Of a DNA stretch of 64,000 nucleotides, positions 28,773 to 52,821 are shown piece by piece. Made by a program: the position numbers and the translations under genes. Source of the DNA: Harriotta raleighana (lineage: Eukaryota); contig JBNZDD010013599.1 in assembly GCA_050575255.1 (NCBI GenBank), positions 1,042,088-1,106,087 of the forward strand. Direction: 5' to 3'. Position 1 is the stretch's first letter. Each line of letters begins with the position of its first letter. Below the pieces are notes generated by a model. It was not told where the DNA came from and did not search any database. It was given only the letters and a program-made list of their open reading frames with translations.

Positions 28773-28904
28773 TCATGCATCGAAGGTGGAGTGGTCCAAA
28801 CCATCCAGTGTCATTTGGTTCCTGTGGGGGGAGTTTGGACTTGGTGGGCTACTTGGATTTGAGCTGTTTGAAGGAGTTGAATGCCTCGTTGAATCTGAGT
28901 CCTG
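28773..28904 (-). CDS. CDC42BPB: CDC42BPB last exon
   Basis: [43 protein letters not shown]; CAGCAG tandem acceptor. Confidence 0.93.
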
Positions 28905-29039
28905 CTGATAAGAGACAATAAGAGAGAAAAAAAACATTAATCTGTTCACTTTTGTGGCTCCTTTAATTGGGAAAATTAAATTGAAATTCTGGATGTCGCT
29001 GCATCGCAATGAACCCAGAGGACAAACGGAGGTAATTAC

Positions 29040-29098
29040 CTCTTTTTCAAATTCTTGCTCAGGATCTGATATTTTACGTGATGAAACAGCTTCCCCAC
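29040..29098 (-). CDS. CDC42BPB: CDC42BPB penultimate exon
   Basis: (G)[19 protein letters not shown]|gtaatt. Confidence 0.88.
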
Positions 29099-30195
29099 CT
29101 AAACAAGAGGATAAACAGTGAAATAAGGCCTTGACATTTTCTTGGCAAATGTTTCATTTTTACTGTTGCAACANATGGGGGGGGGGGGGGGGGGGGGGGA
29201 AGGACGTAAGAATATACCATTGGTATCAGTTTTCAACTCATTCCTGACCCAAATACAAAAGGATTACAAATTGCAGTTGGAGTTTTGCCCTTTTTGAATC
29301 TGTCCCTACTTCTATGACTCTACTCTGCAAAGGATATGGGGGGAGAGCAGGGAGCGGGACTGATCTGGCTGAACTTCTAAAAAAAAAGCCAGCACAAGCA
29401 CAGTGGACTGGACAGATGCTTTCTGTGCTGTCATCTTCCATAATAAGCAAAAAGAGCCAGTGACAATCTTTTAAACATAGTGCAATCATGACGTTCAGAT
29501 GCAAGTTGAGCTTCTATCGTGTCAATTTAAACCGACTGCGTTTTCTGTTCATAATCATTTCTTGCCGGATTGACTTTTCGTGTTAAATCAGGACTGTAGC
29601 TACTGACTGGTTTAGCTAACAGGGATGTTCAAGTCCCCACATCTTAAATAATTCTCCCTATTACCCCTCCAGGAATAGGGACAATCAAAAGCCCATTATA
29701 AAATAAAAGACAAATCCAGATTTTTCTCGAGTTTGACAGCTTGTTTGATGTACAACGATATCAAACACCAAAAAAAAAAAAGGGCTTCAGGACAACATAT
29801 TTTTCACCTGCCTTGGAAGAATTTAAAGACAGGGCTGCAGTGAATAGCCTATTTCTTAAGATGATCAACCAATTGAAAGGCATCTCACTGACAATAACAA
29901 TCTGCAATTGCAATTTTAACAGTCCAATCTTGCCTTCCAATTTTCAAGACTCTGCAGGTATTTGTTTCAGATTTCCAGCACCTGTAGTATTTTATCTTTT
30001 GAGATCTATTTGTGTGATCTTTTGAGTCATACAGGAGTCTAGCGGTGTGCAATGTTTTGGCCAATTTTTTTTTTGTAATGTGCTTGGGGAAGATGCTGTT
30101 TGCTTGTTTCTACATGACCTGGGAGAGAAAAATCCAGACAATACAAATCATTTCCAATGGATATATTTCAACTATCGCATCATTAATTACTCTAC

Positions 30196-30304
30196 CTGAT
30201 GCTGTACGTGAAATATATTGCTTGCTTCGCTGTTGCCTTGAAAGATTGGAATGGGAAGCACGTTTCTCTCTCGATGGCTCATCTTGTGTTACTGGCAATA
30301 CACT
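30196..30304 (-). CDS. CDC42BPB: CDC42BPB exon ~35
   Basis: SVLPVTQDEPSREKRASHSNLSRQQRSKQYISRTAS+G|gtagag. Confidence 0.87.
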
Positions 30305-30446
30305 CTGCAGTAAGAAGTGAAAATTACAATACATTTCCCCCTCCCCCTATATAATGAAATGCTCAACACCTTTATAAACAATGAGTTTACGATGATTTTG
30401 CTTTTGGAGGGCTTAGCCAGCTGCAATTTGGGATAGGAATTCCTAC

Positions 30447-30635
30447 CCTGACTGAGGTAGAGGAACAGGGGCAGGAAGAGGAAGAGAGCAGAGGGAAGCC
30501 TTGCAGTGAGGACTGATCATTCTGGAGATAGATTTCAGCAGAGAGTGTGTTCATGTGATAGATGTGCTCGAAGTTGGTTGGAGGAGAAATCTGGGCATGC
30601 TGTCGAGAGGATGAAGGGGAAGGAAAATCTTTCTG
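30447..30635 (-). CDS. CDC42BPB: CDC42BPB probable cassette exon encoding a second CRIB motif
   Basis: ttag|QKDFPSPSSSRQHAQISPPTNFEHIYHMNTLSAEIYLQNDQSSLQGFPLLSSSSCPCSSTSVR|gtagga; 189 nt, phase 0-0, no stop. Confidence 0.8.
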
Positions 30636-31573
30636 CTAAGTCAACAAAAGGAAACAGACTAGTTAATTATTTTAGGAATAATATCAACAAAACCATTGTG
30701 TTATTCTACGATTCCATTATTTTTTACAACAGGTTCAGATTTTATGCCAAACTTTCACAGAAACGATTGGGTTGTAAAGAATGAATTTAATGATTTAATC
30801 TTTGGATTTGCTTTTAAGAATCGTCAAACTTACGATTTTATGTAAAACTGGTAAGACGTATGTAAAACTGGTGATTTTTTTTTAAAAAGCAGCATTTAGA
30901 ATTTGGGACAACTATTCAGATTTACTTTTTGCGTTTCACAAGGTAAATGCAAAAAGTGTTGAACGCAAGAAAATACAACGCCAGTGATCATTCGGCCATT
31001 CATGCACTTTTGTTTTTAAAATATCATTTTTTTTTGGATACCTGCCAGTCAAACACTCCTTGCCTGAACTTGCAAGATCTTGGGTCATATTATTACTTGT
31101 AGACATTTTTTTTTTGAACACAGGGTAAATACAACTTTCTGTCAAAATCCAATATATTAATCTGACAATTAAAAGATAATTTTGATTCAAAACAAAACAT
31201 CATGGCCCCGAAAGCACAGTGACGTTTTCGTAATAAAAGAGAATTAGAAAGTGCAAATATGCTGAGCACAAATGCAGTGTTAGATAAGCAGTTTAGCAAT
31301 TGTGCAATGTGGCTACATGAATAGGTATAGACGAAAACCTTGCTGAATATTTCGCCTTAAATCACTCCATTTGCTTTTGCTACCCCACAATGTGACTTGC
31401 AGGGTGAATAATGCTTTGAACAATTCGCATAAGCAATAGTTTCCAGATAGGATTTGGGCAAAATGTCATCACTCTTCACTACTTCCTTTGGTAATCGGAC
31501 TAAATCGAGACAAGCATTTCAGCCGGACCAAACCATTACTGTGGTTTATGATCTGATCATAGATTAGTCTTTA

Positions 31574-31756
<183 letters not shown>

Positions 31757-31828
31757 TCAGAAGTTTTTTTTTCTCAAAAAAAAGTGTGTTTCCAGAAAGA
31801 ACATTAAAAAAAAAGAAGGTTGTCCTAC

Positions 31829-31949
31829 CTTCTTTGTAGTAATCTTTCTTCTTCTGATACTTTAAATGCAAACCTCTTCTTGCTCCGGGTTCTGAGCATC
31901 TGCTTTTTGCTGTTATCAGAGGTGTCCGGTACAGTCAAATCATCCCCTT
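31829..31949 (-). CDS. CDC42BPB: CDC42BPB exon ~33
   Basis: [39 protein letters not shown]. Confidence 0.95.
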
Positions 31950-32843
31950 CTGTAAAAATTACATGACAACAAATTTCTAAGACCAATTGTATGAGACGAT
32001 TTGGAACTCAAAGCCTCTAATGTTTTGTTTAGTCAGAAACAGGGCCCAGATTTCAATGGGTAATAAAAAAAAGTAAATGAATCTACAAACAAAATAGGAT
32101 AGATTCATGCAATAAATATCAACCCTCCTACTGTCAAGACACTAATTTTTTTCCCCTTTTATCAAAACTATAATCCATAGCTGTTCAATATAAAATAACT
32201 GCGTTTATCCAATTCAAGTAACAAAAGTAATATTCCACAATATAAATGTTCTGCATTTATTCACATTTAACATTCCTGGACACAGAACCACAGAAACAAA
32301 ACAAAACTGATGATCAGTTTCAGTTCATTAATACTGGCTCAAGACTGAGAAAAGCAGAGGTAGAGAGAAAAATAATCACATACACATGTGAAAAGGGTGG
32401 GGTGGAACAGTCCTCAAGGTTAAATTGTATTAAAACAGCCAAAAGCCACATAACCTAGAAGGTAGACAAAGTAGCAAGTGTTCCACTTTCAAAAATACTG
32501 TTTTCAAAAAGAAAGCAACAATTTTATTCTCCTTTGTTCATATTAAACAAATCTTTGCATTTGTTATGAAGTCCATAGCGTGAAAACATAGCAAAGTGCT
32601 TCACAGCTAATTGCTGGTAAGCATTGTGTATTTTTCAATGGGAAGTGTGGCAAGTACAGTACTATAAAACTGGGTGTAAGTTATGGGGTTACCAACTATT
32701 TCTTTATCTGTTAAGTTTTATTCAGTTTGTAAATTAATAAATAATGTCTTCCATTGGACAAGGTGAAATACATGTCCCTACAAGGATTATTATTATTTCT
32801 TCATGCATCACATTAAGTTACGGATGAAATGAGTGAAACAAAC

Positions 32844-32926
32844 CTGAGTAGTTTTTCTTGAAGTATATTAACCGTGCGGGTTCTGAGTTGAGTTGGTTTA
32901 GTGTTCCATCAGCATTTAATGGTCGG

Positions 32927-32928
<2 letters not shown>
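32844..32928 (-). CDS. CDC42BPB: CDC42BPB exon ~32 (CNH end)
   Basis: [28 protein letters not shown]; acceptor preceded by (TG)21. Confidence 0.92.

Positions 32929-32930
<2 letters not shown>

Positions 32931-32972
<42 letters not shown>
32931..32972. repeat. (AC)21 microsatellite adjoining a CDC42BPB splice acceptor
   Basis: Read directly from sequence. Confidence 0.95.
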
Positions 32973-32977
<5 letters not shown>

Positions 32978-33071
32978 GAAAAGAGCTGATATGAATACTG
33001 TGCCACATAATTTACTGGGTGTCTAAAATAATAATTTTCATCCAGAGTAAAGTTTGCCAGTACATCAGTAC

Positions 33072-33169
33072 CTTCCGAAGGGGAATTGTCTGTACCCAGT
33101 CCATAGTGTTTGCATCAAAGACATCCACACCATATTCACTGTAAACTGCTAGATATGAACTGCTGTAAA
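33072..33169 (-). CDS. CDC42BPB: CDC42BPB exon ~31 (CNH)
   Basis: [32 protein letters not shown]. Confidence 0.94.
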
Positions 33170-33944
33170 CTGGTGTGGGTAAGAGAAATGAAAAATCAAT
33201 TATATAACTAAATTTATCAAAAAGCACTTTGCATTTAGTTATCGCATCAAACTGCCAACCTGTTCAAACTAAATCTGTAGCAGGATTCTCAGAAGCACTG
33301 TTAAAAGTCTTGGGTACAAGTTAGCGGTCTGATTTAGGAGAACTGGCTTGATTGGGACTCAATTCTCTCTTCCTGTGACATCTGACTCAACAGATGAGGG
33401 GGAAAAGCAGGAAATATAGGGATTGTTGTCTTCAAATTTCTATTGCCGCATAAAGTAGTGCAGTCGTGTGAGCTGGATGCCACAGTTATATACCTGCACA
33501 TAACACTTTGAAGCGAAGAGCTGAGTTCAGATAACTTGTGCATAAAATAAAAGCTGAAACCAGCTCCTGCTGATCTCAGACTGCCAGCAAAATTCAGCAA
33601 GTTTCAAAAGAGAATCTCCATATATATTGCCTGAAGACAAGGGCAATGAATTATCGACCGCAAATCTACTTCTAAACTCACCACCATCTCAAATTGTAAA
33701 ACAAAAAAAACACTTTAGAAAGGTACCAAGATAAATGATTGGAATTTGGTGAAATCCTTTTAAATGTTAATTAACCACCATACTTAGATGTTTAAAAAAC
33801 AACGTGTGAAAGAAGCATTAGATGTAATGCATTTAACATCTCTCCGCCATATAATAAGGAGAGGGCTGTGTGTTATTAACAACAACCACCTACATTTATA
33901 TGGAGACCTTTATATGGGGCAGGGTCTCAAGAGCGTTTAAACAA

Positions 33945-34045
33945 AATATACAGTCAATTCACTTTCTGGTATATTCTGTGAAGTGCTTTGAGACATCTCA
34001 AAGATATATGGCGATACATCAAATACTGTACAAGGATTATAATAT
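33945..34045 (+). mobile_element. SINE 3' fragment
   Basis: aatatacagtcaattcactttctggtatattctgtgaagtgctttgagacatc. Confidence 0.7.
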
Positions 34046-34121
34046 GCTACTGTTAAACACAAAAATATACAATGCATTTCTCCGATCAGCACAGAAGTAA
34101 ATAATATACATAAATACGTAC

Positions 34122-34718
34122 TGCAGGCTAACGGAACCGCAGGCCACATGAGTTCTTGAGTCCGTGACCTTCTCCCTAGTGAGTCCACATACACACCCAC
34201 ATGGCTGAAGCAGAGCAAGAATTCCCTGTTACTAAGTTCCACTGCACAAAGAGCATCAAAAGGCTGCTGCGAGAGAAATGCAAGCGACGGGTCATTTGGA
34301 TTTACCAGGATAACGGAGGGCCCATCTCCCTGGATATTAAGCAGCGAGAATCCAGAAGGGTAGCCAACACAAAGCTTTTCCTCAAATAGCATCATCCATT
34401 GCACATTGCCACAGGCCTGAACCTCATGAAATTTCTTGTAGTACGGTTTAGTTCGGCTAATTTCATAGCACATGACTTGCCGCTTCACCGCCACAAAGAG
34501 ACAGGACACAATTCCCTGCCGCAGATATCCAGTAGTCATAGTCTGGCAGCCTTTTGTTTCAGCGAGTTTAATATCAAAGCTGGTCTCAGATCCATCAAAA
34601 GCAGCCCATGGGTAAAAATGAACATGTCGATTGCGCCCACAGATAAGGACAATGAGTTTTTCTTTGGGTATAAGCTCAATCTGGTAGACTTTCTTACAGT
34701 CCGCTGCTCGAACGATCA
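34122..34718 (-). CDS. CDC42BPB: CDC42BPB exon ~30 (CNH domain)
   Basis: [33 protein letters not shown]...[17 protein letters not shown], 597 nt. Confidence 0.96.
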
Positions 34719-35053
34719 CTGCAACCAGAGAATATTTGTTACCATATGAAAACATTGCATCATTTTCCGCATTTTGTAAAGCAATTACAATTGTCAAGCT
34801 GCTTTATTTGCTTACAGAGTGGCTCAGGTTTTCAATCACGTCGGCATTTTAAAACTGCGCTGGAAAAAAGGATATCGGAACAAATGCTTGCTTTTGTAAC
34901 CAAAAGAAAATTTCTAATTGAGTATTATTTCCATAAATGTACATTTCAAAAAGCGTAAATTCTCGTATTTATTCTTTCACTGCAACGAATAAATGAACAA
35001 AGTCCACCGTACCAACACAAATTAAACATGGTAATGATTTTTTGATGGCTTAC

Positions 35054-35116
35054 TATCTCGTGTTAACTCTATCGCATACAGTCCTTCCTCTGTGCCAAGT
35101 GCTATACGTTCACGAT
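35054..35116 (-). CDS. CDC42BPB: CDC42BPB exon ~29
   Basis: (D)RERIALGTEEGLYAIELTRD, 63 nt. Confidence 0.92.
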
Positions 35117-35431
35117 CTATGAGAAAAAACCCAAAACAGGTTAGTTTCTGCAAAATTAAATTGTACAATTTTTTAAAAGTTTGAAAGCGTATTGCCCTTA
35201 GTTTGTCTCATAACTCTTCTCCCCCCACCCACACCTTCTCTTTCACTACACAAAATCCACTACACACACACTGGCTACCTCATTTGCTACGCAAAATAGT
35301 CTCTCCACTTTACGTTATATCCTGTAAAGCGCTTTCAGACATCGACAATGTGAAAAGACACTATACCAAATGCAGAGATTATGATTATTATTATTACTGT
35401 TATCTAAGATCACGAGTTACCTATATCTTAC

Positions 35432-35648
35432 CTATAACAGCAGCAGATAAACTTGTTTTAATAAAAGGTAGTGTACTGTCATACGCTTCTTGTGGAATAA
35501 ATACAACTTTGTTCCTAAGTTTATTTTTTTGCAAGATGCTCTGCAATCCTTCTAGTATTCCAACCCATTTTCTCTTCTCATTTTCACTTTCAGTCAGGAT
35601 TAGTAGTGAACAGGTTTTTGATGGTGAGGAGAGTAGTGAGGTCGTCAC
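35432..35648 (-). CDS. CDC42BPB: CDC42BPB exon ~28 (PH end)
   Basis: [39 protein letters not shown]...SAAVI. Confidence 0.95.
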
Positions 35649-36557
35649 CTGTAGAATAATTAATCGCAGTTAAAAGCAGTAACTGGGCCCAATTAATTAC
35701 GTGTGAATACAAAGACAGCAAATAGTGTTTCAGGGAATAAAGAGAAGTTGGGATCATTTGGAATCCTTCCACAAAAATGCAAAACATATTTCTGGCCATT
35801 GGTCTGAGTAGTTTATATTACACTACCCCATCACACTGAGCCAATAAACCTGGATTTTAATTTCACATTAAGGTGAAGAATGTCAGCATTGTGGAGTGGA
35901 ATGCAATGTCAGCAATGAGCAGTGCCAGTGTGGTTACGAATGGCCACAGGCACATTCCTTCTAACTTCCCCAATCATGTACCCAGACCAATGATTCAGAA
36001 CAATACCTTGCAATACCCCAACCTGCAATCACTGCAACATTGCTCATTTGCCACATCCAGTGAACTGCAATGCTCTGACAAGGCCTAAAAGTCAACGACA
36101 ATCTGTCCATGTTGATACTCAACAAACTCATTTCATGTAAGCCCGTGACCGCAAAGAATGGCAGTTTTCATCCCACCAAACGTGATCCGCCACCTTCCAC
36201 TATTCTTTACTCAAACTGTTAAGGCGCTACACAGACTCAGTGTTTACACACTTTACAATATAAACTATAATACTGTGTGAGCTGAACACTTGACCACAAC
36301 TGCTTCCAAATATTCCCCATGTAAATATCCTCATGTAATAACTCCAAGTGATAACCCCATGTAAATATCCTCGCATAGAAATGGAACACCTGGCTATTTC
36401 TATTTGTCCAAATCCACCTATTCATCTGAGAAGATGATTCTGCTCAACAGTTTTAATTACTTTAAAATATTACCTAAAATGTTCATGAACCATATAAGTA
36501 TAACTTAGAGCACTTTTGGGCAATTAACTTTAATCAATCATATTGATAGAGGTCCTG

Positions 36558-36945
36558 ATAGACCTGATAGAGATCTTCAAGATCATGAAAGGTTTCGACA
36601 GGCTGGATAGGGAAAAGCTATTTCCTCTGGTAGGTGTTTCTGTGACCCCTGGTCACAGTCTTAAGATATCTACCAAAAGAAGCAGAGGGGAGGTTAGAAG
36701 AAATTTTTTCACTCAGAGAGTTATTTGAATATAGAATGATCTGCCTGAAAGGATAGTGAGGTCCGATTCGATAGCAGCTTTTAAGAGAGAGCTGGGGAAG
36801 GCGGGATNTGGGGAAGGCGGGATTGCAGGGTTATGGGGAGAAAGCTGGTGATTGGGGTTAATAAAAGTGACATTGCTCTGTCAGAGAGTCAGCACAGACT
36901 CGATGGGCCGAATGGCCTCCTTCTGTGCCATAGCATTCTATGATA
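36558..36945 (+). mobile_element. CR1 LINE 3' end
   Basis: DLIEIFKIMKGFDRLDREKLFPL...RRNFFTQRVI; tail gatgggccgaatggcctccttctgtgcc..ATTCTATG. Confidence 0.92.
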
Positions 36946-37032
36946 TGCTGACAAATCGCTTACTTGCTGTTTCTCCCTCACAAATCAATGTTTTTTTTTA
37001 AAAATTGAAAAATTCTTCAGACTAATCCTTAC

Positions 37033-37114
37033 CCTGAATATACAAGGGATGTCCTTCCTAGTGGCATGAATGACATCGGACGCAAGAACAGAACTCACAG
37101 AAAAGGCTTCATCT
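37033..37114 (-). CDS. CDC42BPB: CDC42BPB exon ~27 (PH)
   Basis: [27 protein letters not shown]. Confidence 0.94.
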
Positions 37115-38197
37115 CTATAAATAAAGTTTAAGTATTAAACACAGTCCTCTACTTTAAGAGAAATACAATAACAATTAACAAAATTAACAATTAACAAAAG
37201 CAATAACTGTAGGAAAAGCTTAAGGAACAGCACACAAATCTTACAAATGTCTCATCTCTTGCCAATTACTATTAGCTATTAATCAGTTTGGATATTCTTA
37301 AGCATTATGTGTTACTGCAATTTTTTTTGACAAGAAATGAAGGATAAAGGTCCAAAATCTGGTTAGTGGAAAGATTTAAAAATATATATAGTTTCTATGA
37401 CTAGCCAAGTTTTATTTACTTTTCTCAATTATCTGTCTTTGGTGATCGTAAAAAAAACTATTTGTTGTTGAAAGTTGATTTGTGTCCTGACAAATATCAA
37501 TGTTTGCTCAATTTTATTAAATCCAAGCAAGTCTACTCAAATTAGCTTCTTCGGGTTATCTCAGCTAACACACAATAGCATATCTTCTTCGTGAATCAGT
37601 GTGAAGTTAGTCAAATTATTTACATTACTGAGGAACACTAAAGATTACTAAACTAGAAGTACCATTTTAAATTGCAGTGATGCAATCCCACTTAGAGAAA
37701 GGAATTAGGAAATAAATATGCTACTGAACTATACAAATCGATTAAAGGTTGCAAGAGATCATTTTGAAGAGAGTGAGATATCAGCTATATTCAGAATTTT
37801 AGTAAATTTACTGGAAACATTTTTGGCTGTTGGATTAAAATAAACTGTGGATTTTTAGTTCCATGAAAACCAATTTTGTGAGGAAAGAATAGACTCAATT
37901 AGATAATTCCCCAATGAATGTGACAAGTTAAGATCTCATAGCAGCGATAGGGAAATGCAATATAGCAGATATTTCTTTGGTTTTACTTGAATAATCACAT
38001 TTTGGAAATATCTGTTTTGCTGCCAAGTGAAAACCTATATTAAGTCAATTCCATATTAAGGAACTGACAGCCTATTGGCCCCTGCAACACAGATTATACC
38101 TCCTCCTACACTATAGGAAAATGAAAATATCAGAATATTAATGATTTTTCATTTTGTTTCTTAAGAGTTTATAATAATGATAATAATAAAGACTTAC

Positions 38198-38337
38198 CTC
38201 AGGTCCAGGACCTGACTGGCAACAACTCCAGGCTGCATAGATTTGCCTTCAGCCACGTCATACAGAAACAGTTTACAATCACAGACCACTGCATACGCAC
38301 GCTGCCAACCTTTCTTCACCCCTGTGGGCTTGGGAAC
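38198..38337 (-). CDS. CDC42BPB: CDC42BPB exon ~26 (PH)
   Basis: [46 protein letters not shown]. Confidence 0.95.
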
Positions 38338-39349
38338 CTCGAGTGAGAGAGGGAAGAGACAAAAGATTAGTGCCTGAACAATGCATGGAAATGGAATTGC
38401 AACAGTAAGAGTTTTGTGCATCTCCTTGTCAAATTACTGTTCCAGGTTTATACTGTGAAGTGCCTACTTTGCTGGCATTTTTTTCATCTGAGTGCGGTTT
38501 ATAATTCTACTTATTCTGGCCCTAAGTTCCATCGTTTAAATTTTATTAGAGGCACTTTACTAAAGGAATATACAACACAATATTTGTATTCTCCATATTA
38601 AAACAAAAATTACATTCCCTTTCCCCACTGCCAAATGACCTATAACACCAGACAAGAGCTTGGCATTTTTCCCCCAGCCAATTAAGGCAAAAGTGTCTGC
38701 AGTTACAGTTTTATCATGCAATTACAGTGAAACTGGATGTTAGAATCAATTGGATAGGCCTCCCATAACACAAGGATTCTTTCTATCTGGAGTCATTTAA
38801 TAAATAAACAGTCTACTCAATGCAGCATCACGAGGTTTCTGAAAGTACTGCAATATCCTTCCTCTAATCTCCTTTCTCACGAACCTATAAGAAAAAATTC
38901 CTGGAGTCTGCCTTCAACAAGTCCTTCACAAGTCTGAATCTAAGCCATCCCGGGCTAGTACCTGAACATATTTGAAACTTGTGTCCTGATTTACATCGTC
39001 TACTAGACCATCTCGCGAGGTTTGAAATACCACAGAAGGACTGCATTTGTCACAAGCGAAAACAGCCCAGCCAGATGAGCTTGACCTGTACCTGCTTTAA
39101 CCTGTGAATCACTGAGCGCAAGCAGTGCTGTAAAATGACTCCCCCCCCACCCCCACCCTCCCAAAAAAAAGTAAACACTATAGAATTGTATTCATCAGGA
39201 CTATCATTGCTTAACGATAGCTTTACACCTGAAAGGCACACCACCTTCTGTGCAAATCTTTCCAATGCACATACTGTAAACACCATTTGAACTGATCTTT
39301 GTCATGAATAACACGTCATCCAAAGTTACACTGCAGCAGATCTCATTAC

Positions 39350-39483
39350 CTTTACGTAGCCTTTGTAAGCTGTTCCTATCCCTCTCTGAACATCTATTCC
39401 GAGCGGCCTCTTTGTTTGCTCAGGGATAGGGCATACTTGAGGGGCATTGTCCTTGCATAACACGTGGCAAATAAAGGAGCAGA
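39350..39483 (-). CDS. CDC42BPB: CDC42BPB exon ~25 (C1 end)
   Basis: [44 protein letters not shown]. Confidence 0.95.
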
Positions 39484-39815
39484 CTGCGGAAGAAAACAGA
39501 AGAAATGTATAATATGAAGAGATGGAGGCATGTAGGAGGAGGGGTTTAATTGTAACCAAACGTTGCACTATTAAAAAATGGACCACACCAACAAAAATCA
39601 AACAGCGACTCTTTTAGATGAATTAGCATTTTTTTTTGCTTTGCTTAATACTCTGTGTGCAAACACTTAAGTGCCTGCAAAATACAATCTTTTATAAAGA
39701 AAATGCTCAGTGTGTGCAAGTGATTTACACACCACAATGTTAGAATACTCAAACCGTAATACTGAGCAGTAAATCTGGTGTACAGTAAGTTCTGGAGTAA
39801 CAACATGATACTCAC

Positions 39816-39921
39816 CATCACAGGCGTATCCCTGTCGAACTAAGCCAACCATGAGAGATGTGCAATGGCTGCACTGTGTAGGGCTGGAGAAAGTTCTGAT
39901 ACTCACTTGATGAGCTTTAGG
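39816..39921 (-). CDS. CDC42BPB: CDC42BPB exon ~24 (C1 start)
   Basis: [35 protein letters not shown]. Confidence 0.95.
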
Positions 39922-40259
39922 CTGAATAAGAGAAACGTTTTTAATAAACCACATTCAATAGACAAAAGTAATGACGTCTATTTTGTTTAGAATGTGTTCA
40001 GAATGTAAAGAATTCAGTGCATTCGATTAATTTTAATGTAAGCAAAGCCTGCAGCCCTATGAAGCAGCTTGGAATCCCTCCCAATGTTATTCATTTACTT
40101 CCTCCTGTACGATCTACACTTTTAATAGATAGTGTCAGGCACAAGCAAAACTGTTTTTACGACTAATTGAATTGAACAAATTCATATTACTTTTGGATTT
40201 CTAGGGCACATTTATGGCTGATTCTATGCAACGAACAGACTATTTATTTAAAAAAATAC

Positions 40260-40331
40260 CTTAGGCAAAGGAATTGGCTGTACAAATATAGGAGTAGCGA
40301 CTGGGGTGGATCTGGGGGTCATTGGCGGCTC
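40260..40331 (-). CDS. CDC42BPB: CDC42BPB exon ~23 (proline-rich linker)
   Basis: gcag|EPPMTPRSTPVATPIFVQPIPLPK|gtattt, 72 nt. Confidence 0.78.
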
Positions 40332-40559
40332 CTGCAATTCACAAAACAACAATTGACAATCCTGTCCACACTCAGAAATTTGACATTTTCACGATTAACC
40401 AAAATTAATATTTATATCAGCGACGACAATTTTGCGAGTCAAACGTGCTTAAGGTTCAGGAACAAAGGGAAAGACGGAGGCCCTCCTGACTGGCTCGCGT
40501 CAGCGCCTCCGCACCTCAGGCACTGGCACCATCAGACTCCGCCACTACCCCACCCCCCC

Positions 40560-41165
40560 CCACGCTGCTGAAACATTCATCCATGTTTTCATCACATCTC
40601 GGCTCGACTGCGGGAACTCTCTCCTTGTTGGCCTTCCCAGCTCCTCCCTTCACAGGCTGCAGATTATTCAGAATTCTGCAGCTCGTGTACTCTCCCGCAC
40701 CAGGCTTCGTGACCACATCACTTCCACCCTCGCCCGTCTCCACTGGCTCCCCATCCCCCAGAGGATCGACTTCAAGATCCTCGTCCTCACTTTCACGGCC
40801 TTGCCCCCGCCTATCTCTCTGACCTGCTGTCTCCCTATCAGCCTGCCCGTCCCTCCGTTCAGCGGGCTCTGGCCTGCTCCGCGTCCACCACCCTAACCCC
40901 CCAACCATCGGTGGCCGGGCTTTCAGCCTCTCTGCCCCCACACTCTGGAACTCCATCCCGCTGTCCCTTTCCCTCACCTCCTCCTTTAAGACCTTCCTCT
41001 TCGACCATGCCTTCTGCTCCCCTCCTAACTCTCTCCCCTCTCCTACTCTCCTTCCCCCTACCTCCCCAACACCCGCTCGGGTCCCGACATAACTATTCAG
41101 CGCCTTGGGATGTCCTCCCGACGTGAAAGGCGTTCTATAAATGTAATTTTTTGTTGTTGTTGTTG
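40560..41165 (+). mobile_element. L2-clade LINE, 5'-truncated 3' end
   Basis: ORF2 C-terminal relic AAETFIHVFITSRLDCGNSLLVGLPSSSLHRLQIIQNSAARVL...LHWLPIPQRIDFKILVLTF; tail ggatgtcctcccgacgtgaaaggcg..(TTG)n. Confidence 0.92.
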
Positions 41166-41654
41166 AAAGGATCATACGTTCATGTCAGCATCACATTGCA
41201 CAGAATAACAGTTTTAAGTACGATTTAAGTGTATGGGGCTTTATGCAGCATGATTCAATTCAATAAAGTCTGAATACTTCACAGCTTTGGCTTGATAAAC
41301 CTTTTGCTTCCAGTTACCAATTTTGTGACTGCTTAAAAACTGTTTTCACAGAAATGTTAGATTTACATTCATGTTCCCGCAATAAATTTATTTGGTGGAA
41401 TCCGTTAACAAATTAGAAATGCGAGTTATGTAAGTTCCTATATAGCAAAAGCGTAAATTGTTTTAGAACTGGTATTTGGTTATAACCGAACCATATAAAG
41501 CTTACTTTCTTGAGATAATACTCTCTTATGGAAAAGGCTCACTCAACATAATAGGACACTATTGGAAGTTTCTCCCAAAATGTTCAACGCCTTCAGAAAC
41601 AAGCTCAATTGCTTCGAAGGTTTTCTGGAGAAACGAAGGATATTGCGTACTTAC

Positions 41655-41753
41655 ATCCTGCTGTTCGGCAAGACTAGAAATTGACGGCGATGGAGAACGG
41701 GAAGATGCTTCTGGTCTTAGACCCCCGGGATCCGACTCACTAATGGAGCCACT
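41655..41753 (-). CDS. CDC42BPB: CDC42BPB exon ~22 (serine-rich linker)
   Basis: SGSISESDPGGLRPEASSRSPSPSISSLAEQQD|gtaagt, 99 nt. Confidence 0.85.
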
Positions 41754-42069
41754 CTACAAGAAAATAGTTTTGAAAGTGAACGTCAAGAGAAATGACCGCG
41801 CTAAATCTAAGCTATTGTACCTTGATAGGAAATCCAAACTTATACTTAACAACAAAATGCTGAATTTTATATCAGTGTTTGGAAGAGCACCAAGTTTGTA
41901 AATGTGTAATAATCGCAATCTTTACACCTGGTACAGCAGTTTTCACATTGGGAGAGTATCCCAATGCGCTTCACTGAATAGAATGCAAAGTATTTTGGGA
42001 TGGAGCCAATTTGCACATAGCAATGTCCCACAAATAGCCTTGAAGTGAAGGAACAATTTTATTTTGGGC

Positions 42070-42290
42070 AGTGAAGGACAAGACACCTCCTTGCCAATAG
42101 TGGAAAGGTTCATCTGAGCAGTCAAATGGGACCTCAGTTTAACATCTTGTCTGAACGATGCCATCGCCAATAATGTGGTGCTTTCCCCAGCACTGCAATG
42201 GGAGCATCAGGCGAGACAATGTGAGTTCAAAGTCCATGATGTGGAACCACAATTTACTAACTCGGGAGGTAAAATGCCACCAAGCGAGAC
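42070..42290 (-). mobile_element. Deu-domain-like SINE relic
   Basis: Reverse strand reads gatggcatcgttcagacaagatgttaaactgaggtccc, preceded by cattgcagtgctgggga. Confidence 0.6.
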
Positions 42291-43496
42291 AGATGTTGAC
42301 ACGAACAAATTGCAATACAGAATAACAGTTGAAGCAAATGGCACCAAATATAGCAGATCAATTTTTTTTTGTGATAACAGTATCGTTGGGTACCCTAAAT
42401 GGAATTTGGTAAGCATAAAACATATAAAAAATAGAACAATTCAGAAAATACAGTTTAGAAATAGTTCAAAAATTGCTGGAAAGGTAAGAATTCTCTCAAA
42501 GCTCTGCTAATGGTCTATTGAGTTACACTAAGCCATCCAGAAAACTGCAGGACTAAATAATGCTGCAAGCTTCATTAGCTAAACATACAATTGCTTTCAG
42601 CACTTCTGGTTCAAGGAGGAAAAATCTGTTAGGATCCCGGTGCTTTTACCATGCAGAGATCCAACCCTACTGGAAAAGTTATGTGTAGATATCAGCTTAA
42701 AAAAAATAAGAACCAGTGGTAGAAAAGTCTGATGCCTTTGGAAGCATCCCCTGTTGAAAAAAACAGATAATTCAAAAAAGGAGGAAAGGAAAAAATTCTT
42801 GGCAAAAAATTATATTTTCAATAATTTGTTTCGACAAGCCTTTTTTCTCTCCTCCCTCCCTTTCTCCCAACCAAATGAGCTTGGTTCCCAGCCCCCACCA
42901 AAACTGCCCTGAAAAATTGCCACATCTGTGGGATGATTTTCCCCCCGTTGAAAAAGTCTTGCTTTTAACCCCCTCATCGCCAAACCTCCGTGCACCATCT
43001 GGCAGCAGTAGGCGCTCGCTTGGGGAGGAAAAAAATCAATCGCGATTGTTGTTCCTACTCAAGTGTACTGGTGTGGATCTTGACCGAGGATAACGCTAGG
43101 GCCAGCCACAATGGCTCCGTTTGAATAGCTAAGGCTCATACATAAAAAAGGAATACTTCTGGGAGATACCAAAGGACGCCCAGCGACAGTGGAATTGTAT
43201 TCCAGTTCAGGGCAATTCTTTTGTAATCTCGTCAACTGAGTCCAATGTTTAAGTGGCCAGTTATAAGTGGGATGTGTACGTAAGAAAAGAAAGGCCAACT
43301 TCTCAAGGTTTCAACATTAACAAAATTACATTTATTGAGCGCTTTTCACATCGGGAGGATGTCCCAAAGTAATGGTGGCCTGATAACCCCCAGAAGTGTG
43401 GGCTTTCACACTGAAAGCCAGCTAGTCAGTCAGTGCGGGAAGCTAGCTTGTCAATCCATGTATTGTACTTCCGGTTAGCGCAGCTCCACAGGACAA

Positions 43497-43602
43497 ATAA
43501 TAATACTTGCATTTGATAGTGCGCTTTTCACGTCTTCCAGATGTCTCAAAGTGCTTCACAGAAAATGCTCTAAAATGAATTGACTGTATATTTGTGGGCG
43601 AG
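43497..43602 (-). mobile_element. SINE 3' fragment
   Basis: aataataatacttgcatttgatagtgcgcttttcacgtcttccagatgtctcaaagtgcttcaca. Confidence 0.78.
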
Positions 43603-45135
43603 ATGAAGCCATGGTACAACCAAGGACACTTTAGAAGGCGCAGCGGAAGTCAACATTGCCTTCTGGAGGGGATTGCAGAAAATGGGCATAAAACCCTGCA
43701 TGTATGCTCATACATGATTCAAGGCACTTTAAAAAAAATTTTTTTTTGGGTAAAGCATGGTTCCAAGCTTAACACAAACAACATACTGTTGGACCCTGTT
43801 ACACCATGCTGTTATTTAGGTCTGTGTATAATGTGGCAGCACAGAGGTATACAAAAGTGAATGACACACAGCCTCTGTTGCATACAAGCAGCTACCTGGC
43901 TTCCCAGCCACCACGCCAAATGTTCATAAGAGTTATTCTTGGCTTCCTACACTTACACCCATCTGGCCTAGTGACATCCACAACAATATCATCAGCAGTG
44001 TGCTGACCTAGAGAATGACCCGTTTTATGAACACAAAACACTGTTAATGACACAGGACAGACTGGATTCAAATACCTAAATATAAATCAATTGTGGAGTC
44101 TTAACTTGTTCGGGATATATTCAGGCATTTCTTTATGTAGGGCTCACTTCATTATAACGTATAAAGCTTTTTCCCATCCATACAAGGATCAAGTTGTATC
44201 GAGTTTGAGGTATAATTAACTTGAAATCACCTATCAAATTACAAAGAGTTACCAGTTCATCCCTGAACCTTCATTTACTCACAGCTGACTACAGAAAGGA
44301 TGCTGTCAGGGATGGTAAAATGTTTTCTTACATGTCTGTTCTTTATAAAGCAGGGCTTGATGGAAGACATCAAGTTGAATGGGGAAGGTAACAAAACAAG
44401 AAGAATCATTAGAACAGTATTTCACAGAGCAAAGGGTGAGGTATATAATCACCGAGCACCTGGAAATCTCAAGAATGGTTATGCCGTGTGCTCAGGAGTT
44501 CAAATAAATGATGATAACGTCCTCACTAAAGCAGAAGATGTGACCAAGGGATAACATTGCCCCACATCAGATACCAAAGCCGGTCAATATCCAACACTTT
44601 GTTGGCAATGCATCCTCTACAGTTCAACAGTTTTCATACTGCTCACTCACTACCACTCGTTTCATATTAATAAAACTGAAGCACCTTATATAACTAAAGC
44701 ACCACACAAGTGGCTATATAACAGATGAGGCCTAATTAAAAAGTCTACTCCAGCCAATTTTATTTGAACCCCTGAAGTTAATATTTTTTTTTTTACACAC
44801 TGGTTCTGCTGTTAAACAAAAGCCATTGAAAATACATCAGTTTAGCTGTTTAGTAGAACAACATAAAATTTTTACATTTAGTAGAATGCTGAATTACAAA
44901 GGGCTTTTTTTTTAAGTAATGGGAATAAGATTATTCTGCGTTTCTCCAAATGTTACAACTTCGAAGTTATGGCAAAATATGTTGTTGTTTAGTGGTTATG
45001 AACACCAATGACTGAATAAGTAAAGGAGATTTCATGTAAAACGATTGCGGAGGCGATTGGCAGGGTATAAAGGTCGGTTAGCTCAAAGGGTCGGGGTAAT
45101 GCAAGTTGGGTCATAAAGTGCTTACAGAAACTTAC

Positions 45136-45186
45136 TTCATCCCAAAACGCAAGAAGAGACGATGCAGATGAGGTAGAAATAAAGTC
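45136..45186 (-). CDS. CDC42BPB: CDC42BPB probable 51-nt cassette exon
   Basis: caaag|DFISTSSASSLLAFWDE|gtaagt, phase 0-0. Confidence 0.7.
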
Positions 45187-45587
45187 CTTTGAGTAACAAA
45201 TATGAGAAAAATACACTTAGCATGTCCCCTTTTCAAGTTCAAAAACGTAGGAACCAGGATACTCTCTTCAAGCTTCTCTGTGTAGAATTTGGGTTTCCAC
45301 TGCTTTAAAAGAAGTTAACTTGTTGGAAGTTTTTGAAAAGTTATAAATGCAATAGCCAGAATCAAACTACATCTGCTTTATGGAGGAGTGTGTGGACTGC
45401 GTGTACTTCTGCACCGACATGAACTGTTTTATGTCTCACACCAAATGAATTTGGCATGTGTCACAATTCACAATTACTATGCCATTTGGTTACTATTTTA
45501 AAAATTACACAGATACCGCTATAAAAATAACACAGGTCAAATGCTCTTTGGTTTGAATTTGCCACTAACTCTTTAATAAGCACTCAC

Positions 45588-45667
45588 TTTAAATCCCAAA
45601 TCATGTGGAATTGGAGAAGTGTTAAAGTAGTCAAATATAGAGTCTTGAAAATCTGGAAGCTTGAGAC
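45588..45667 (-). CDS. CDC42BPB: CDC42BPB exon ~21
   Basis: (G)LKLPDFQDSIFDYFNTSPIPHDLGFK. Confidence 0.93.
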
Positions 45668-45805
45668 CTTTTGAAGAAAAAGAAAAAATTAAAACTTGCT
45701 TTTTTTTAATAAGAGCCACACTTATTTACAGATAAATATAAAGCAATCCAGGTCTGGTACGTATAACACCTAGTAACAATATGACGCACTGTATAAATTA
45801 CTAAC

Positions 45806-45903
45806 CTTGCTCAGTTCTGACTCTACTTTCTTCCAAGTCTTTCTTTAAAGTTTGTATCTCTTCAACAAATTGTTGATTTCTACGATCTGAGTCCCTCAAT
45901 TTA
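45806..45903 (-). CDS. CDC42BPB: CDC42BPB exon ~20
   Basis: KLRDSDRRNQQFVEEIQTLKKDLEESRVRTEQ. Confidence 0.9.
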
Positions 45904-46321
45904 CTGTAAATACATTTTCAAAGAACATGAGTAGAATACAGGACGCGTGCGGATTTAACAGTTAAACAATACAGTTTATATTGGTTTTGTGCTTTTCACA
46001 TCGAGAGAGTGTCTCAGGGTACTTGACAATGCTGGCTCGGCACTTGAGCAGGAATTGGGGAAGCTGAAGTGGTGTGGAGGAGAAAGATGACAAAGTGCAT
46101 CTTGTTCTTGTAAATAGCCACATAAAACCTGTCTGAAATTTTAACAGTCAATATTTTTAAAATATTACATTCCTGCCAATATTCTCTGAAAAACACTTTT
46201 GCCTGGAGAACCCTGATATCCTTTGAGATTTCCTCAGATCCACTGCCATACCTTACATCACTGATGATACAAAAAAAGATGCATTATAGATCCAGGATCA
46301 GGATAGTAAAAAATCCCATAC

Positions 46322-46470
46322 CTCTCCAAAGCCATGTTTGTAGCTTTCACTCTACCCAGCTCTTCCTGAATTAACTGCTTCGCACGCATTTCTGTTTCAA
46401 GGGCTGACTGCAGCTCTAGCCTGGCTGACATATCCAGCTTTGCACTACGTCGCACTTTCCATAGGGGGTC
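46322..46470 (-). CDS. CDC42BPB: CDC42BPB exon ~19 (DMPK-type coiled coil)
   Basis: [49 protein letters not shown]. Confidence 0.95.
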
Positions 46471-47458
46471 CTGGGAGTAAAGCAAAAAGGAAATGTGAGC
46501 AAATAATCATGCAAATTTCAAGGAATGCACATTTACTCCTTAGTCGGGAGTCTCAGCAACAGAACCTCCTTGATTTCTCAAATAATTACAGTGAATCTGA
46601 ACATCTTTTATTTTCTTTAAATGACACTTGAAAAATATTGAAACAATGATCACTGATTGGGAACATTGGGGCAAATGGCTAGGGAGAGATATAAACCTTA
46701 AGAGTTAAAATCAAGGGCAATTTAGAAGATTAAATCCTTGAAACCACCTCTTAGTAATAAAGAACTCCGATCATAATTTTACTCTTGTGTCTTCGAGTCC
46801 GAGTTTCCCTTCGAAATGCTCTAAAATGTTATCAGGATTCAATGATTAAACAAGGGTAAAATAGATATTTTAATCAGATTCTAAAAGGATCTGGAGCAAG
46901 ATATTTTCCTGTGTTTTTGCTAATCTATGATCAGCGCTGCATAAAACAGAGCAACCAATACCATATTCTTCTTAATTCATCAAAAACAATTAGTTTCTTT
47001 AAGCTTCTCTGTAGAAATACGACCTTTGTATTGCAGATTGTAAATTAAACACAAAATATAAAGCAATGGCTGCATCAATTACTCTTCAATGCCATAGCTG
47101 AAAAATTATATGCTGCTAGATTTGAAAATTGTCCATTTAGTGAAAACAGACCTTTGCATTAATTACATTAATTAGCCTTGGCATTGCATCTGGTTATTGT
47201 TGTGGGTTGAGGATATCCAGAGGCTTATTCAGGGAATCGGATTATTTTATTGGAGAATTAGGAAGATCAGGAAAAAGGTGAAATTAAAACTTCAAAAATA
47301 AAAATAGGACACAGGAAAAAAATAGGACAGTAAAAAAAATCCACAGGTAAAGTATATTAACATTTAATTAGATCCTCCTGGCATGAAAGGCACTCTACAA
47401 ATATAATTTTGCTGTTAGCGGTGATAACCTGTGACTTGGGATTTAAAGTAAGTCTTAC

Positions 47459-47564
47459 CAGAGTTCTTGAACCGAGACTGGAATTTCGCAGAGATTCGAG
47501 TTCTTCTGTCATCTTTGATGCCAGAGCCTGCAAATATCCTCTCGCATCCTTCTCATCACTTACC
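47459..47564 (-). CDS. CDC42BPB: CDC42BPB exon ~18
   Basis: [35 protein letters not shown]. Confidence 0.95.
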
Positions 47565-47871
47565 CTAACACGATAAAAGAATGAATTAGCCCTGAAAGTT
47601 CCTTAATTACATTATCAACAAAAAATATTAAATTATTACATGCAAGCCTCTTCAGTTTAAACCTTTACACACACACACACACACACACATAAAAGGATCT
47701 GATCCATAAATATCTACTTATTATTCCAGTAGTGTATAGCTAATGGTACAAATTGCAAAAGACTTTGTTTAAGTATTCAAATATTATTCATTATCCCCAG
47801 AAGCAGATTTGCATGGTCGACACATCAAAAGTTACCGCACTTTTAGATTATGATCGATAATTCGAACATCA

Positions 47872-48111
<240 letters not shown>

Positions 48112-48544
48112 TTAAAGAGTTTGAAAACATTTGAATGGCATTTTTCAGGGCATTTTAAACCCAAATTCACAGTATTTTGTGACAGTCGATAAGAATATTA
48201 AAATCATAACCTATCACCCGGTAAGGCGTGTATAATTACATAGTGGATTTTCAACCCCATGGAGACCTACACCTCACAACAGGATGCCACTTTGTTGGAA
48301 GCAGCTAAAAGGAGTTGTGGTAATTGATCTCTAAAGAGAAATTGTCCAGCACTCAAGACCTTCCCGGGTGCAAGAAATCTTAGCTGGGAAGAATCAGTCA
48401 TGGTCTGGTATAAGTCATGGTCAAAAGTGGCTTAAGTTAAACAAACAGAATTCAAGACGTCATGGGAGGGGAAAGAAGAGGGCGGCAGAATTAAAGTTGA
48501 GAATTATGCACTGTGATCAAAATATAAATGTATTAGAGCCTTAC

Positions 48545-48650
48545 TCTATCGTTCTCGGCTGAAAACTTCTTGTTCTCTTCGATGAGCATGTTTTTCTCAC
48601 ATTCGTACTTCTTTTTCAGCTCGCTCAGAGTTTCTTCCATTTCGTTTTGC
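48545..48650 (-). CDS. CDC42BPB: CDC42BPB exon ~16
   Basis: QNEMEETLSELKKKYECEKNMLIEENKKFSAENDR. Confidence 0.92.
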
Positions 48651-49404
48651 CTATAGACAAAAAGCTAGATATATTCCAAGTTTCTTATCACGCTACAGAA
48701 CATCAATGGAGCACTTCCATTACACAGAATTTAGAGTTTTTCTGATACAATGAACTGATACTGTGCCTTATTTTGTTGAAAATCCATATGTGCTGGGATT
48801 CGAAATGAAGGTACATCTCATTTAGATGTACCACAACAGATCAGGCAAAGACAAATCAAGCCGCTCACTGACCCAGTTTGTTACTTTCCTCTTCAATAAT
48901 GATCAGATCATAACATTACAGTTAGAGCTATTAATATTATTAACGAACATCAACATTATCCTATTGTTTCCCAAACAAGTAAATGCAGTTTGTAATGGAA
49001 CTTACTTTATACTTTGCAGTAAAATTTTTAGAAATCTGACAAAGATTTGTAGTAGAAATGAGTCAGCTAAAAAAAATTCGCAAAGTAATCAACCAGGAAT
49101 ATTGATGATGCAACATCTACATTTTTATAATACTACATTGCTTTTCCAGTGAATTTTTAGAATATTCATGTATGAACACAATATTACAGTACAGTAATTA
49201 GATTACATTGAGCAAAGTTTCTGAATGGTGAACCCGTCCTGAACTTACCGTTACAAACTCAGTTTCAAATGACTGGAAAATAAAAATGAACAGACACATT
49301 TTATAGATTCTTTCTTGCACCAACCTTGAGCTCTGTAATAGCAGTCCAAAAATATTATGAAAATGAAATAGAAATTAATTTTGCAAGAAGCAGAGGCTAT
49401 TTAC

Positions 49405-49649
49405 CTGTCTCTCTTGACTTTCTCCAATTTGTCTTTCAGCATCATGACATCTTTCTGCAGAGCTAAGTGTTGGGCGTCTGAATCATGCAGCTCCTTCCGA
49501 AGGTTCTTAATTTCTGTGCAGTGAGCAGATTCACATCTCACAAGTTCCTCTTCGTAGAAAACTATTTTCTTCTCCAGTTCGGATTTTACCTTCGACAGTT
49601 CCTGCTGGTGCAGTAAGGTGGAGCCACTTGTTCGACCTCCATGCTTTAG
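49405..49649 (-). CDS. CDC42BPB: CDC42BPB exon ~15
   Basis: [38 protein letters not shown]...KDKLEKSKRD. Confidence 0.94.
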
Positions 49650-50037
49650 CTAAAAATACAGAGGGTTGGGGGGTGGGGGAGAGGAGAAAGAAAATATTGG
49701 ATGACCAGGATCACTGTGATTTCATTTGTTTGCATCTTGTGAGTGATTCTGGGTTCCTGTAGAAAAATCTCAGCAGTCTTTTGATTTACAAAGATGTTAT
49801 AAGACTTCTGGGTAACCCCAGCTGTCAAAGCTAATATGTTTTGTGTATAGATGAACAATCCACTGATGTGGTTGGTTGTTGGGAGCGAAAAAAACATTTT
49901 TCGTCACTATATAGCACACTGTTATGAAAGACTCCTGTGTCTGCTACGTCTGAGCACACACTTAAATTTTTCGGCACTTACTTCCTTAGGGAAAAATAAA
50001 GTTTTAAAACAAAACTTTAATGTTTTTATATTCTAAC

Positions 50038-50148
50038 CTTGAGCCCCTCCATCTCGGTTTCCAGCTGCTTGGAGTAATTCTCACTATGTTCCCGTAGCTT
50101 CCGTTCTTTTGATCCTTCAGCAACGGCATCTTCCAACCGAGCCTCCAG
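50038..50148 (-). CDS. CDC42BPB: CDC42BPB exon ~14
   Basis: [37 protein letters not shown]. Confidence 0.94.
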
Positions 50149-51448
50149 CTGGAACAAACATGCAGTAGTTAATGAAACCCTTTAGGTGCAATGTATTATG
50201 CAACACAAAATTTATGTGATCTTTTGTATAAAACCCTATTTTGTATACGTACGAACCTTGGGAGAATTGCAAATCACGTGCGCATCAAAATCCAAAGAAG
50301 AGTGATTGTTTTTGAGTTGAATAAGAACTGAGAATTTGTATGGTTTTCAAATTAGAATTTCTTCAATTTTAATTTGATGTACTGCTTTGGAAATTGGGAT
50401 AATATGCAGCGATTATAAACCTCTTATTTACAAGTTTTTTTCCCCTAATATTGATTATCATCCACTTGAATAACATATTGCCATTTGAGCAAACTCAACA
50501 CTGATGTTTTGTTGCAATGTACTCTGTACTTTACTGCATTTATTAAACGCAAAGTTGCCCGTGAAAAACTAAACAAATGGTTGCTGTTAATTTAGTCTTA
50601 TTTTCTGTTTGCAATTACACACCAAATTTGTTTTCAGGAAGGACTACGATGTGGGAAAGATCCTGATCATTTCAATAAAGTTTGCTTAATAGTTAACATT
50701 ATACAATCTAGCTGCCTGTACTATATGGATAGGGAAGGAAAACATTATGCTCAGAAATCTATCCACAATCAATTAAATTTAAATTCTGTGAGGCCCATCA
50801 ATCCTTTTTATTCACTGTTCTATATCGATAGAGATTTACTACAGCATTAGTAAGAAGTAGGTCAGCTTGAAGAGCAATTGGATAATAACCATCTTAATTG
50901 GAAGCTTTGGAAATTTTCAGAACTTTATTTTGTTCCTTTTTTTTTAATAAAAGAAAAACTGTCTTTGAGAATGACACTGCTGGGTCTGCCAGGGAACCCA
51001 CTGAAGGGAAGAGGTTAGAAATCTCTTTTGCTCTCCATAACCAGGAAGTAACAGGGAGATATATACATTGAAAAAGAATTGAGCAAAACAGTTAGCACTT
51101 CTTGAGTTTCAGCGCTTTTCTCTTACTCAGTATCTTACAATACACTCGTAATGTTGTCGTGGCTATGTTCAACACTTCACGTTCTTTTATTTGGCACTAA
51201 CCCTGAATTAAGATGAATTCAACAAATATTAAGGAAACATGCATTAAATGTTGCCCCAGGCTAGAAATGGGAATGGCTCAACATTTTGTGGTGAGCTTCT
51301 TTTTGAGTTCAGGTCAGCAGAAAACCAAAGGAATTCACAATTATGGTTATTTCTTCGAGTTTCTTGCTGTAAGTGATCCATCTTAGGCCTGCTGCAGCTT
51401 CTGCCCATCATTAACTGGCTCATCTACTCCAATAAGTGCTCAAACTAC

Positions 51449-51691
51449 CTCTTTCCTGGCCCTCTCCGCTTTCCGGATTTCCTGCCGCATGGAGTCCATC
51501 TTCTGCATAATCACTTCCAATTCCTCCTCTTTATCGCGCAGTTGTCGAGAAAATTTCTGTTTCTGCGAACGCATTTCCGCCATCCGTTCATTGAGTTCTG
51601 AGAATTCCTGCATGGCTATCTTTCTCTGATGATGTGCATCCTTCAACTCTTTGGTTTGGGACTTTTGCCTTTCCAGAGCTTCAACAAGTTG
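51449..51691 (-). CDS. CDC42BPB: CDC42BPB exon ~13
   Basis: [46 protein letters not shown]...ERARKE. Confidence 0.95.
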
Positions 51692-52701: not shown

Positions 52702-52821
52702 CTGCTATTTTCTTCCGCAATTTTTCAATCTCCTCATTTAACTTCTTGATTTCCTTATCTCTGTTGCCAGTTCCCATTCCGCGTGGTGAACCAAGATGTG
52801 ACTGGATAGCCGGTGTAGACT
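52702..52821 (-). CDS. CDC42BPB: CDC42BPB exon ~11
   Basis: [39 protein letters not shown]. Confidence 0.93.

Follow-up and report, generated by a model that had tools for sequence, protein, structure and literature searches.

Does MRCK-beta, the product of CDC42BPB, carry a single CRIB (Cdc42/Rac-binding) motif or, when a further exon is spliced in, two? The question is raised by a stretch of Harriotta raleighana DNA of 64,000 nucleotides (the window), in which a sequence-only reading had proposed a hidden, in-frame exon encoding a second CRIB core in tandem with the canonical one. Tan and colleagues, working on MRCK-alpha splicing in 2003, reportedly found a second CRIB in that paralogue. 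MRCK has been described as a dimer that is tethered to the membrane by polyvalent weak contacts, two CRIB-Cdc42 contacts among them, and its kinase activity is not raised by Cdc42 (bioRxiv 2022.03.11.483953; PMC3940853). Two histidines of the canonical motif (CRIB1) are needed for Cdc42-dependent cortical localization of human MRCK-beta (PMC10470461), and MRCK-1 of C. elegans has one CRIB, located within its last 58 residues (PMC11634028). We report here that the additional exon, judged from comparative sequence analysis, is a conserved cassette exon in CDC42BPB and that, in most of the jawed-vertebrate classes examined, predicted beta proteins contain an orthologous exon.

Results

Sequence similarity and gene order identify the host gene as CDC42BPB (MRCK-beta), in agreement with the sequence-only reading. 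A tblastn map recovers some 28 coding pieces between 60673 and 28776, and the coding exons (28773..60673, minus strand) reach from about residue 89 to the stop codon; tblastn found no match in the window to the first 88 residues of MRCK-beta. The summed identity is 67.8-70.1% to beta proteins versus 62.2-62.6% to alpha proteins, and identity to Callorhinchus is 94% over 199 residues. In a tree of CNH exons (16 rows from alpha and beta, gamma left out) the two paralogues split with a support of 100/100, and the window gene is sister to Callorhinchus milii beta (100/99). By this placement and the identity, the DNA stems from a cartilaginous fish related to Callorhinchus, probably a chimaera. An assignment to alpha is ruled out by the identity sums and this tree. 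On the plus strand, and tail-to-tail with CDC42BPB, lie a TRAF-type MATH domain exon (5501-6094) and amnionless exons (12720-18085), the neighbor domain scan having covered 55 of 181 frames. TRAF3 and AMN are the neighbors of human CDC42BPB, in the same order. Rfam gives just three weak tRNA-like matches in the window (34-41 bits; 22738-22810 and 24461-24535 on the plus strand, 56624-56686 on the minus strand), probably tRNA-derived repeats, and none near the additional exon.

Direct reading of the minus strand from 30635 to 30447 confirms the proposed segment. The predicted cassette exon, which we call the CRIB2 exon (30447..30635, minus strand), comprises 189 nt of phase 0-0 and encodes 63 aa, its 63 codons being free of stops and its AG/GT boundaries preserving the frame. 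With a slash marking the junction, the acceptor reads ...ccttttgttgacttag/CAG behind a pyrimidine-rich tract and the donor GTCAGG/gtagga. The acceptor is a tandem one (ttag/cag/) and the exon can start at 30635 or 30632; use of the distal AG at 30632 yields a shorter form (30447..30632, minus strand) of 186 nt and 62 aa. The upstream intron (30636..31600, minus strand) is 965 nt long and ends in the pyrimidine tract and the tandem NAGNAG acceptor, and the downstream intron (30305..30446, minus strand) measures 142 nt. The constitutive CRIB1 exon (31601..31718, minus strand; phase 2-0, motif at 31643-31681), of which spliced contigs occur in 4 of 4 RNA runs, has a 3' end in phase 0 (CTG/gt), and the next constitutive exon (30196..30304, minus strand; phase 0-1), joined straight to 31601 when the CRIB2 exon is skipped, opens in phase 0. 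Because both flanking exons meet in phase 0, the reading frame survives either inclusion or skipping. The constitutive exon preceding the CRIB1 exon (31829..31949, minus strand) has a start that was set by eye and an alternative acceptor at 31946. Further downstream, the penultimate coding exon (29040..29098, minus strand; 59 nt) is followed by the last one, which runs to the stop codon (28773..28904, minus strand). The 3' part of the gene holds two further tandem NAGNAG acceptors on the minus strand, at 28904/28901 and 31949/31946. A scan for splicing motifs was uninformative, with one TGCATG at 371 nt upstream of the CRIB2 exon and none in its downstream intron.

Within the CRIB2 exon, the second CRIB core ISPPTNFEHIYHM (30552..30590, minus strand) lies 42 residues beyond the first in the window translation. 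The window CRIB2, ISPPTNFEHIYH, matches the core I-S-x-P-x(2-4)-F-x-H-x-x-H, and consensus match and translation agree on the position proposed earlier. With the V/M position left open, it fits 7 of 8 consensus positions; there is no closing Gly, the V-G that ends the 16-residue CRIB consensus being replaced by M-N. Both histidines of the CRIB1 type are kept together with the rest of the core. PMC8847673, from which the CRIB consensus is taken, describes cores with one or two changes as still able to bind. A comparison with the Pfam PBD profile (PF00786), suggested by the sequence-only reading, returns CRIB2 as a match (E 0.0067), but at 17.1 bits, under the curated cut-off of 21.3; the match is confined to profile positions 1-15. 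The CRIB1 exon reaches 21.7 bits, just over that cut-off. CRIB2 has the I-S-x-P-x2-F-x-H-x-x-H core in common with the canonical CRIB/PBD of PAK, WASP, ACK and MRCK, but unlike these it lacks the Gly after the core and the inhibitory-switch region. Among solved structures searched to E 10 there were two matches, neither significant; likeness to the PAK2 CRIB in 9lbf is weak (E 1.5, not significant). A protein atlas search gave no usable match.

In six frames of the whole window the CRIB core occurs twice, namely in the two CRIB exons, and 60 second-order Markov resamples of the window contain it twice in total. This rarity, together with conservation among homologs, rules out a chance open reading frame. 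CRIB2 is borne by 126 of 130 proteins collected by similarity, a set that was picked by likeness and is therefore biased toward conservation. The search pattern demanded the Pro, the Phe and the two His; Ser, Glu and Tyr of the core are identical in all 126, though the pattern left them free. The Gly after the core is missing in 126/126, with Ser, Thr or Asn in its place. Several CRIB motifs in one chain are also seen outside MRCK: in six proteins (P0133, P0136, P0139, P0140, P0141 and P0146), Pfam scores 3-6 CRIB repeats and no other domain is clear. P0133 is an uncharacterized lobster protein and P0146 a prawn protein. These multi-CRIB proteins arose separately from MRCK.

The idea that the exon is hidden, or special to this lineage, finds no support. 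A search with the 63-residue peptide yielded three long proteins among 163 candidates, the beta proteins of Callorhinchus, a lungfish and a turtle. Over about 60% of the peptide, the lungfish and turtle proteins are 70-73% identical to it, and Callorhinchus beta (UniRef100_A0A4W3IYB5) reaches 85% over the aligned part; the exact window peptide is absent from the protein collection searched. The CRIB1+CRIB2 region of the turtle, used as query against cluster representatives only, gave 1458 matches. The best 120 consist of 117 beta-type and 3 alpha-type proteins, and every one of them has two CRIB cores. Represented among these 120 are chimaera, sturgeon, bichir, gar, bowfin, many teleosts and frogs, and on the amniote side a turtle, a crocodile, two anoles and three bird models. 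Predicted beta isoforms that share the exon, its place and its core are those of zebrafish (XP_021324168.2), Xenopus laevis (XP_041427898.1) and gar (XP_069049172.1), and the same exon is found in Pelodiscus (XP_075782627.1), in lungfish (XP_043929521.1) and in the Callorhinchus protein named above. Pelodiscus has annotated isoforms of both kinds, some with the insert (3/7 members) and some lacking it, and such pairs also exist in Xenopus laevis, gar and Polypterus. Annotations in sturgeon, paddlefish, bichir and cyprinids include both tandem-acceptor forms. All these CRIB2-bearing beta isoforms are automatic gene models and known here as predictions. With annotation from fish to reptiles, novelty of the beta exon is largely refuted, although no mammalian beta with the exon is among the matches listed. 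The three Callorhinchus models (P0003, P0006, P0007) all include the exon but continue past its donor into intron sequence, and they are without the true C-terminal exons. The distance from CRIB1 to CRIB2 is 41-43 residues in most sequences, except for spiny-rayed fish (P0079-P0132), in which a longer Ser/Pro lead-in places CRIB2 about 46-52 residues after CRIB1.

MRCK-alpha does have an extra-CRIB cassette, as the sequence-only reading had stated. In 117 of 122 alpha proteins examined, a cassette of 61-64 aa with a CRIB core directly follows the CRIB1 exon; it is found in gar, crocodile, marsupials and placentals and is present in the curated mouse protein NP_001346473.1. Like that of beta, this cassette is inserted at the junction right after the CRIB1 exon, is optional and ends in Arg. 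Its CRIB2 lies 41 residues after CRIB1 and has an I-S-x-P-x-N-F-E-H-I/V-Y-H-M core followed by S-A-E-x-F/Y-L, as in beta, whereas the last 25 residues differ and are Pro-rich in alpha and Ser-rich in beta. The alignment of the beta exon profile with that of alpha spans 48 columns (probability 98.6, E 7.9e-16), while either CRIB2 exon profile aligns with CRIB1 exons over 22-30 columns only; in the part after the motif alone, the likeness of alpha and beta is weak (probability 9.6, E 0.0034). A motif tree (34 columns, midpoint root) separates 16 CRIB2 rows, alpha and beta together, from 15 CRIB1 rows with 100/100. A recent lineage-specific duplication of CRIB1 is ruled out by the exon profiles and this tree. 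The homologous cassette found at this junction in MRCK-alpha supports the earlier proposal that the cassette is older than the alpha/beta duplication, and one ancestral cassette would be the simplest history; this age estimate draws on alpha and beta sequences, with mammalian beta, gamma, lamprey and invertebrate sequences left out.

A human CDC42BPA cassette exon termed E37 has been confirmed by RT-PCR, with a higher inclusion in cardiac progenitors than in stem cells (SI -1.8; PMC2764345). The left E37 primer given there encodes MGPGD, with which the CRIB1 exon ends, and the right one lies, by eye, in the MDQGSD stretch; between the two sites, primate and carnivore alpha proteins differ by a 62-residue CRIB2 insert. 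Because its primers flank that insert, human E37 corresponds to the alpha CRIB2 cassette. Another CDC42BPA exon, which changes in hypoxia (PMC5879922), is a different one, its primers being located in exons 12 and 14.

Apparent losses of the beta exon are seen in some birds and in mammals. In songbird models (Geospiza, Catharus and three unnamed ORFs; P0048, P0299-P0309) the start of the exon matches the window exon one base out of frame, and in some songbird rows the invariant CRIB2 Tyr is changed to Cys. In hawk models (Buteo, Accipiter; P0064, P0310-P0316) the reading either ends directly behind the core or passes through the core in the wrong frame. From these sequences, which are gene models and not genomic DNA, we infer two separate frameshifts in the bird beta CRIB2 exon. 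Mammalian beta is not represented among the best 120 of the 1458 matches to the turtle query, whereas marsupials and placentals retain the alpha cassette. Exon-less beta proteins score 57-60 bits with this query, the list ends at 85 bits and exon-bearing tetrapod beta proteins score 105-183 bits; in the alpha search, mammalian alpha with the cassette makes up almost the whole of the listed matches. Because the listed scores exclude exon-less beta and mammalian alpha is plentiful, we consider it fairly likely that the exon was lost from mammalian beta. However, scores exist for cluster representatives only, and the best 120 of 1458 likewise include no shark, ray, coelacanth, snake or salamander; absence from that list is thus weak evidence of loss.

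For RNA evidence, 4 of 10 matching runs were aligned (X1, X5, X6 and X7; shares 0.05-0.06 across the ten). Their sequences are assembled contigs of a relative, in which rare forms are dropped by assembly. The skipping joint 30304-31601 is present in X1 and X7, which come from two studies, with matching loose ends in X5 and X6, whereas an inclusion joint of the kind proposed earlier occurs in 0/4 of these runs of the relative. Three runs cover the CRIB2 exon solely by contigs that extend into both introns, and X7 has no coverage. Skipping is hence common, yet inclusion is not shown to be absent, because contigs drop rare forms.

The same contigs allow a comparison with the relative. Within the CRIB2 exon there are at least 11 substitutions in 189 nt (at most one more) and no indel, versus up to 28 substitutions in 298 nt and four indel events in the flanks, and the rates of 5.8% and 9.4% do not differ significantly (p 0.17). 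Nine changes are non-synonymous over about 143 sites and two synonymous over about 46 sites (Fisher p 1.0). As these numbers match those of the sites, no purifying selection is visible at this distance outside the core; inside the core, the sole amino-acid change is Ile/Val. The ten changed codons of the relative agree with the Callorhinchus protein in 10/10 cases. Two contigs that belong to another gene, in X5 and X6, match just 33 nt of the core (30551-30583). Their loose ends, translated by eye, resemble the alpha cassette of gar (TVHSAENFL following the core), so an alpha cassette seems to be present in the relative too.

Discussion

As a gene structure, the CRIB2 exon is ordinary: it is part of public predicted models of many species and mirrors the known MRCK-alpha cassette. 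In the open-licence literature, a scope that excludes most subscription papers, we found no paper on a second CRIB in MRCK-beta. A query there for two, tandem or extra CRIB motifs with MRCK led to a Dictyostelium protein, as far as the accessible text goes, and the accessible portions of PMC10354065, PMC13753119, PMC8412110 and PMC3983107 make no mention of a second CRIB. Measured against the open-licence literature, it seems that beta's exon, its apparent age beyond the alpha/beta split, its broken copy in some birds and the failure to find it in mammals are unreported so far. The age of the exon and its apparent losses are the part worth following. CRIB2 would have originated by duplication of CRIB1, no later than in early jawed vertebrates; in beta it may subsequently have degenerated in some birds and was probably lost from mammals, whereas alpha would have kept its own.

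What might a second CRIB do? MRCK relies on weak multivalent contacts, both histidines are kept and slightly altered cores can bind, and for these reasons we moderately favor the view that inclusion of CRIB2 raises the valency from two to four per dimer and tightens membrane recruitment. CRIB2 would bind GTP-loaded Cdc42, and inclusion of the exon would turn two sites per dimer into four. The effect would be a tighter or lower-threshold recruitment to Cdc42-rich membrane, not a catalytic activation. Inclusion is expected to be tissue-restricted, with skipping as the common form. A bias of the beta exon toward heart or muscle is a prediction by analogy, made because the human alpha cassette is cardiac-enriched (PMC2764345).

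An unlikely alternative is that CRIB2 switches specificity and binds a GTPase other than that of CRIB1 (Rac1, TC10/RhoQ or TCL/RhoJ), acting as a receiver of a second signal or as a coincidence detector. Alpha and beta share fixed differences between CRIB2 and CRIB1, namely the core Glu and Tyr and the lack of the GPGDG turn, and in both a conserved S-A-x-x-F/Y-L segment follows the CRIB2 core. Moreover, binding of Rac1 by MRCK-alpha has been reported, with CRIB affinities unmeasured (PMC3940853). However, the core residues of CRIB2 are those of a standard CRIB and give no pointer to a particular other GTPase. The sub-threshold Pfam score and the missing Gly would also fit a segment that does not bind GTPases at all but serves as a Ser/Pro-rich spacer, a phosphorylation patch, a docking site for another partner or an intramolecular decoy. 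Conservation that is also strong outside the CRIB, for instance in the PSPSSSR lead-in and the Ser run of beta, points the same way, yet the most invariant columns in both paralogues are those of the CRIB core with both histidines, which is hard to explain if no CRIB-like interaction takes place, and we regard a non-binding segment as quite improbable.

Equally improbable in our view is that the exon, functional in bony fish and amphibians, is a relic in the cartilaginous lineage, rarely used and under relaxed constraint. Such a history would be in line with skipping as the only form in the four runs of the relative, with the nine non-synonymous against two synonymous changes, with the read-through of the donor in three Callorhinchus models, with the lack of any shark or ray among the matches listed and with the decay visible in bird models. 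Against it stand the intact frame, splice sites and tandem acceptor, the lack of any indel in 189 nt compared with four indel events in the flanking introns, a core in which Ile/Val is the sole amino-acid change, and the 70-73% identity shared with lungfish and turtle across about 60% of the peptide. We hold to added valency as the preferred reading. If the beta exon has the age and the losses proposed above, it would be a small and well-bounded test object for the question of CRIB affinity and splicing in MRCK that is raised in PMC3940853.

A more far-reaching scenario, which we put forward as speculative and rather doubtful, is that MRCK gained a splice-controlled second GTPase-binding site of distinct specificity before alpha and beta duplicated. 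Both paralogues would have retained it in fish, amphibians and reptiles other than birds, while beta would have lost it independently in songbirds, in hawks and in mammals. Two-site MRCK in mammals would then be alpha only. If true, two kinases that are usually deemed redundant would have an inherent difference in function, biased toward heart or muscle. If the apparent loss from mammalian beta is true, zebrafish and Xenopus would possess a two-CRIB form of MRCK-beta that is missing in mammals, a difference that would matter where these animals serve as CDC42BPB disease models.
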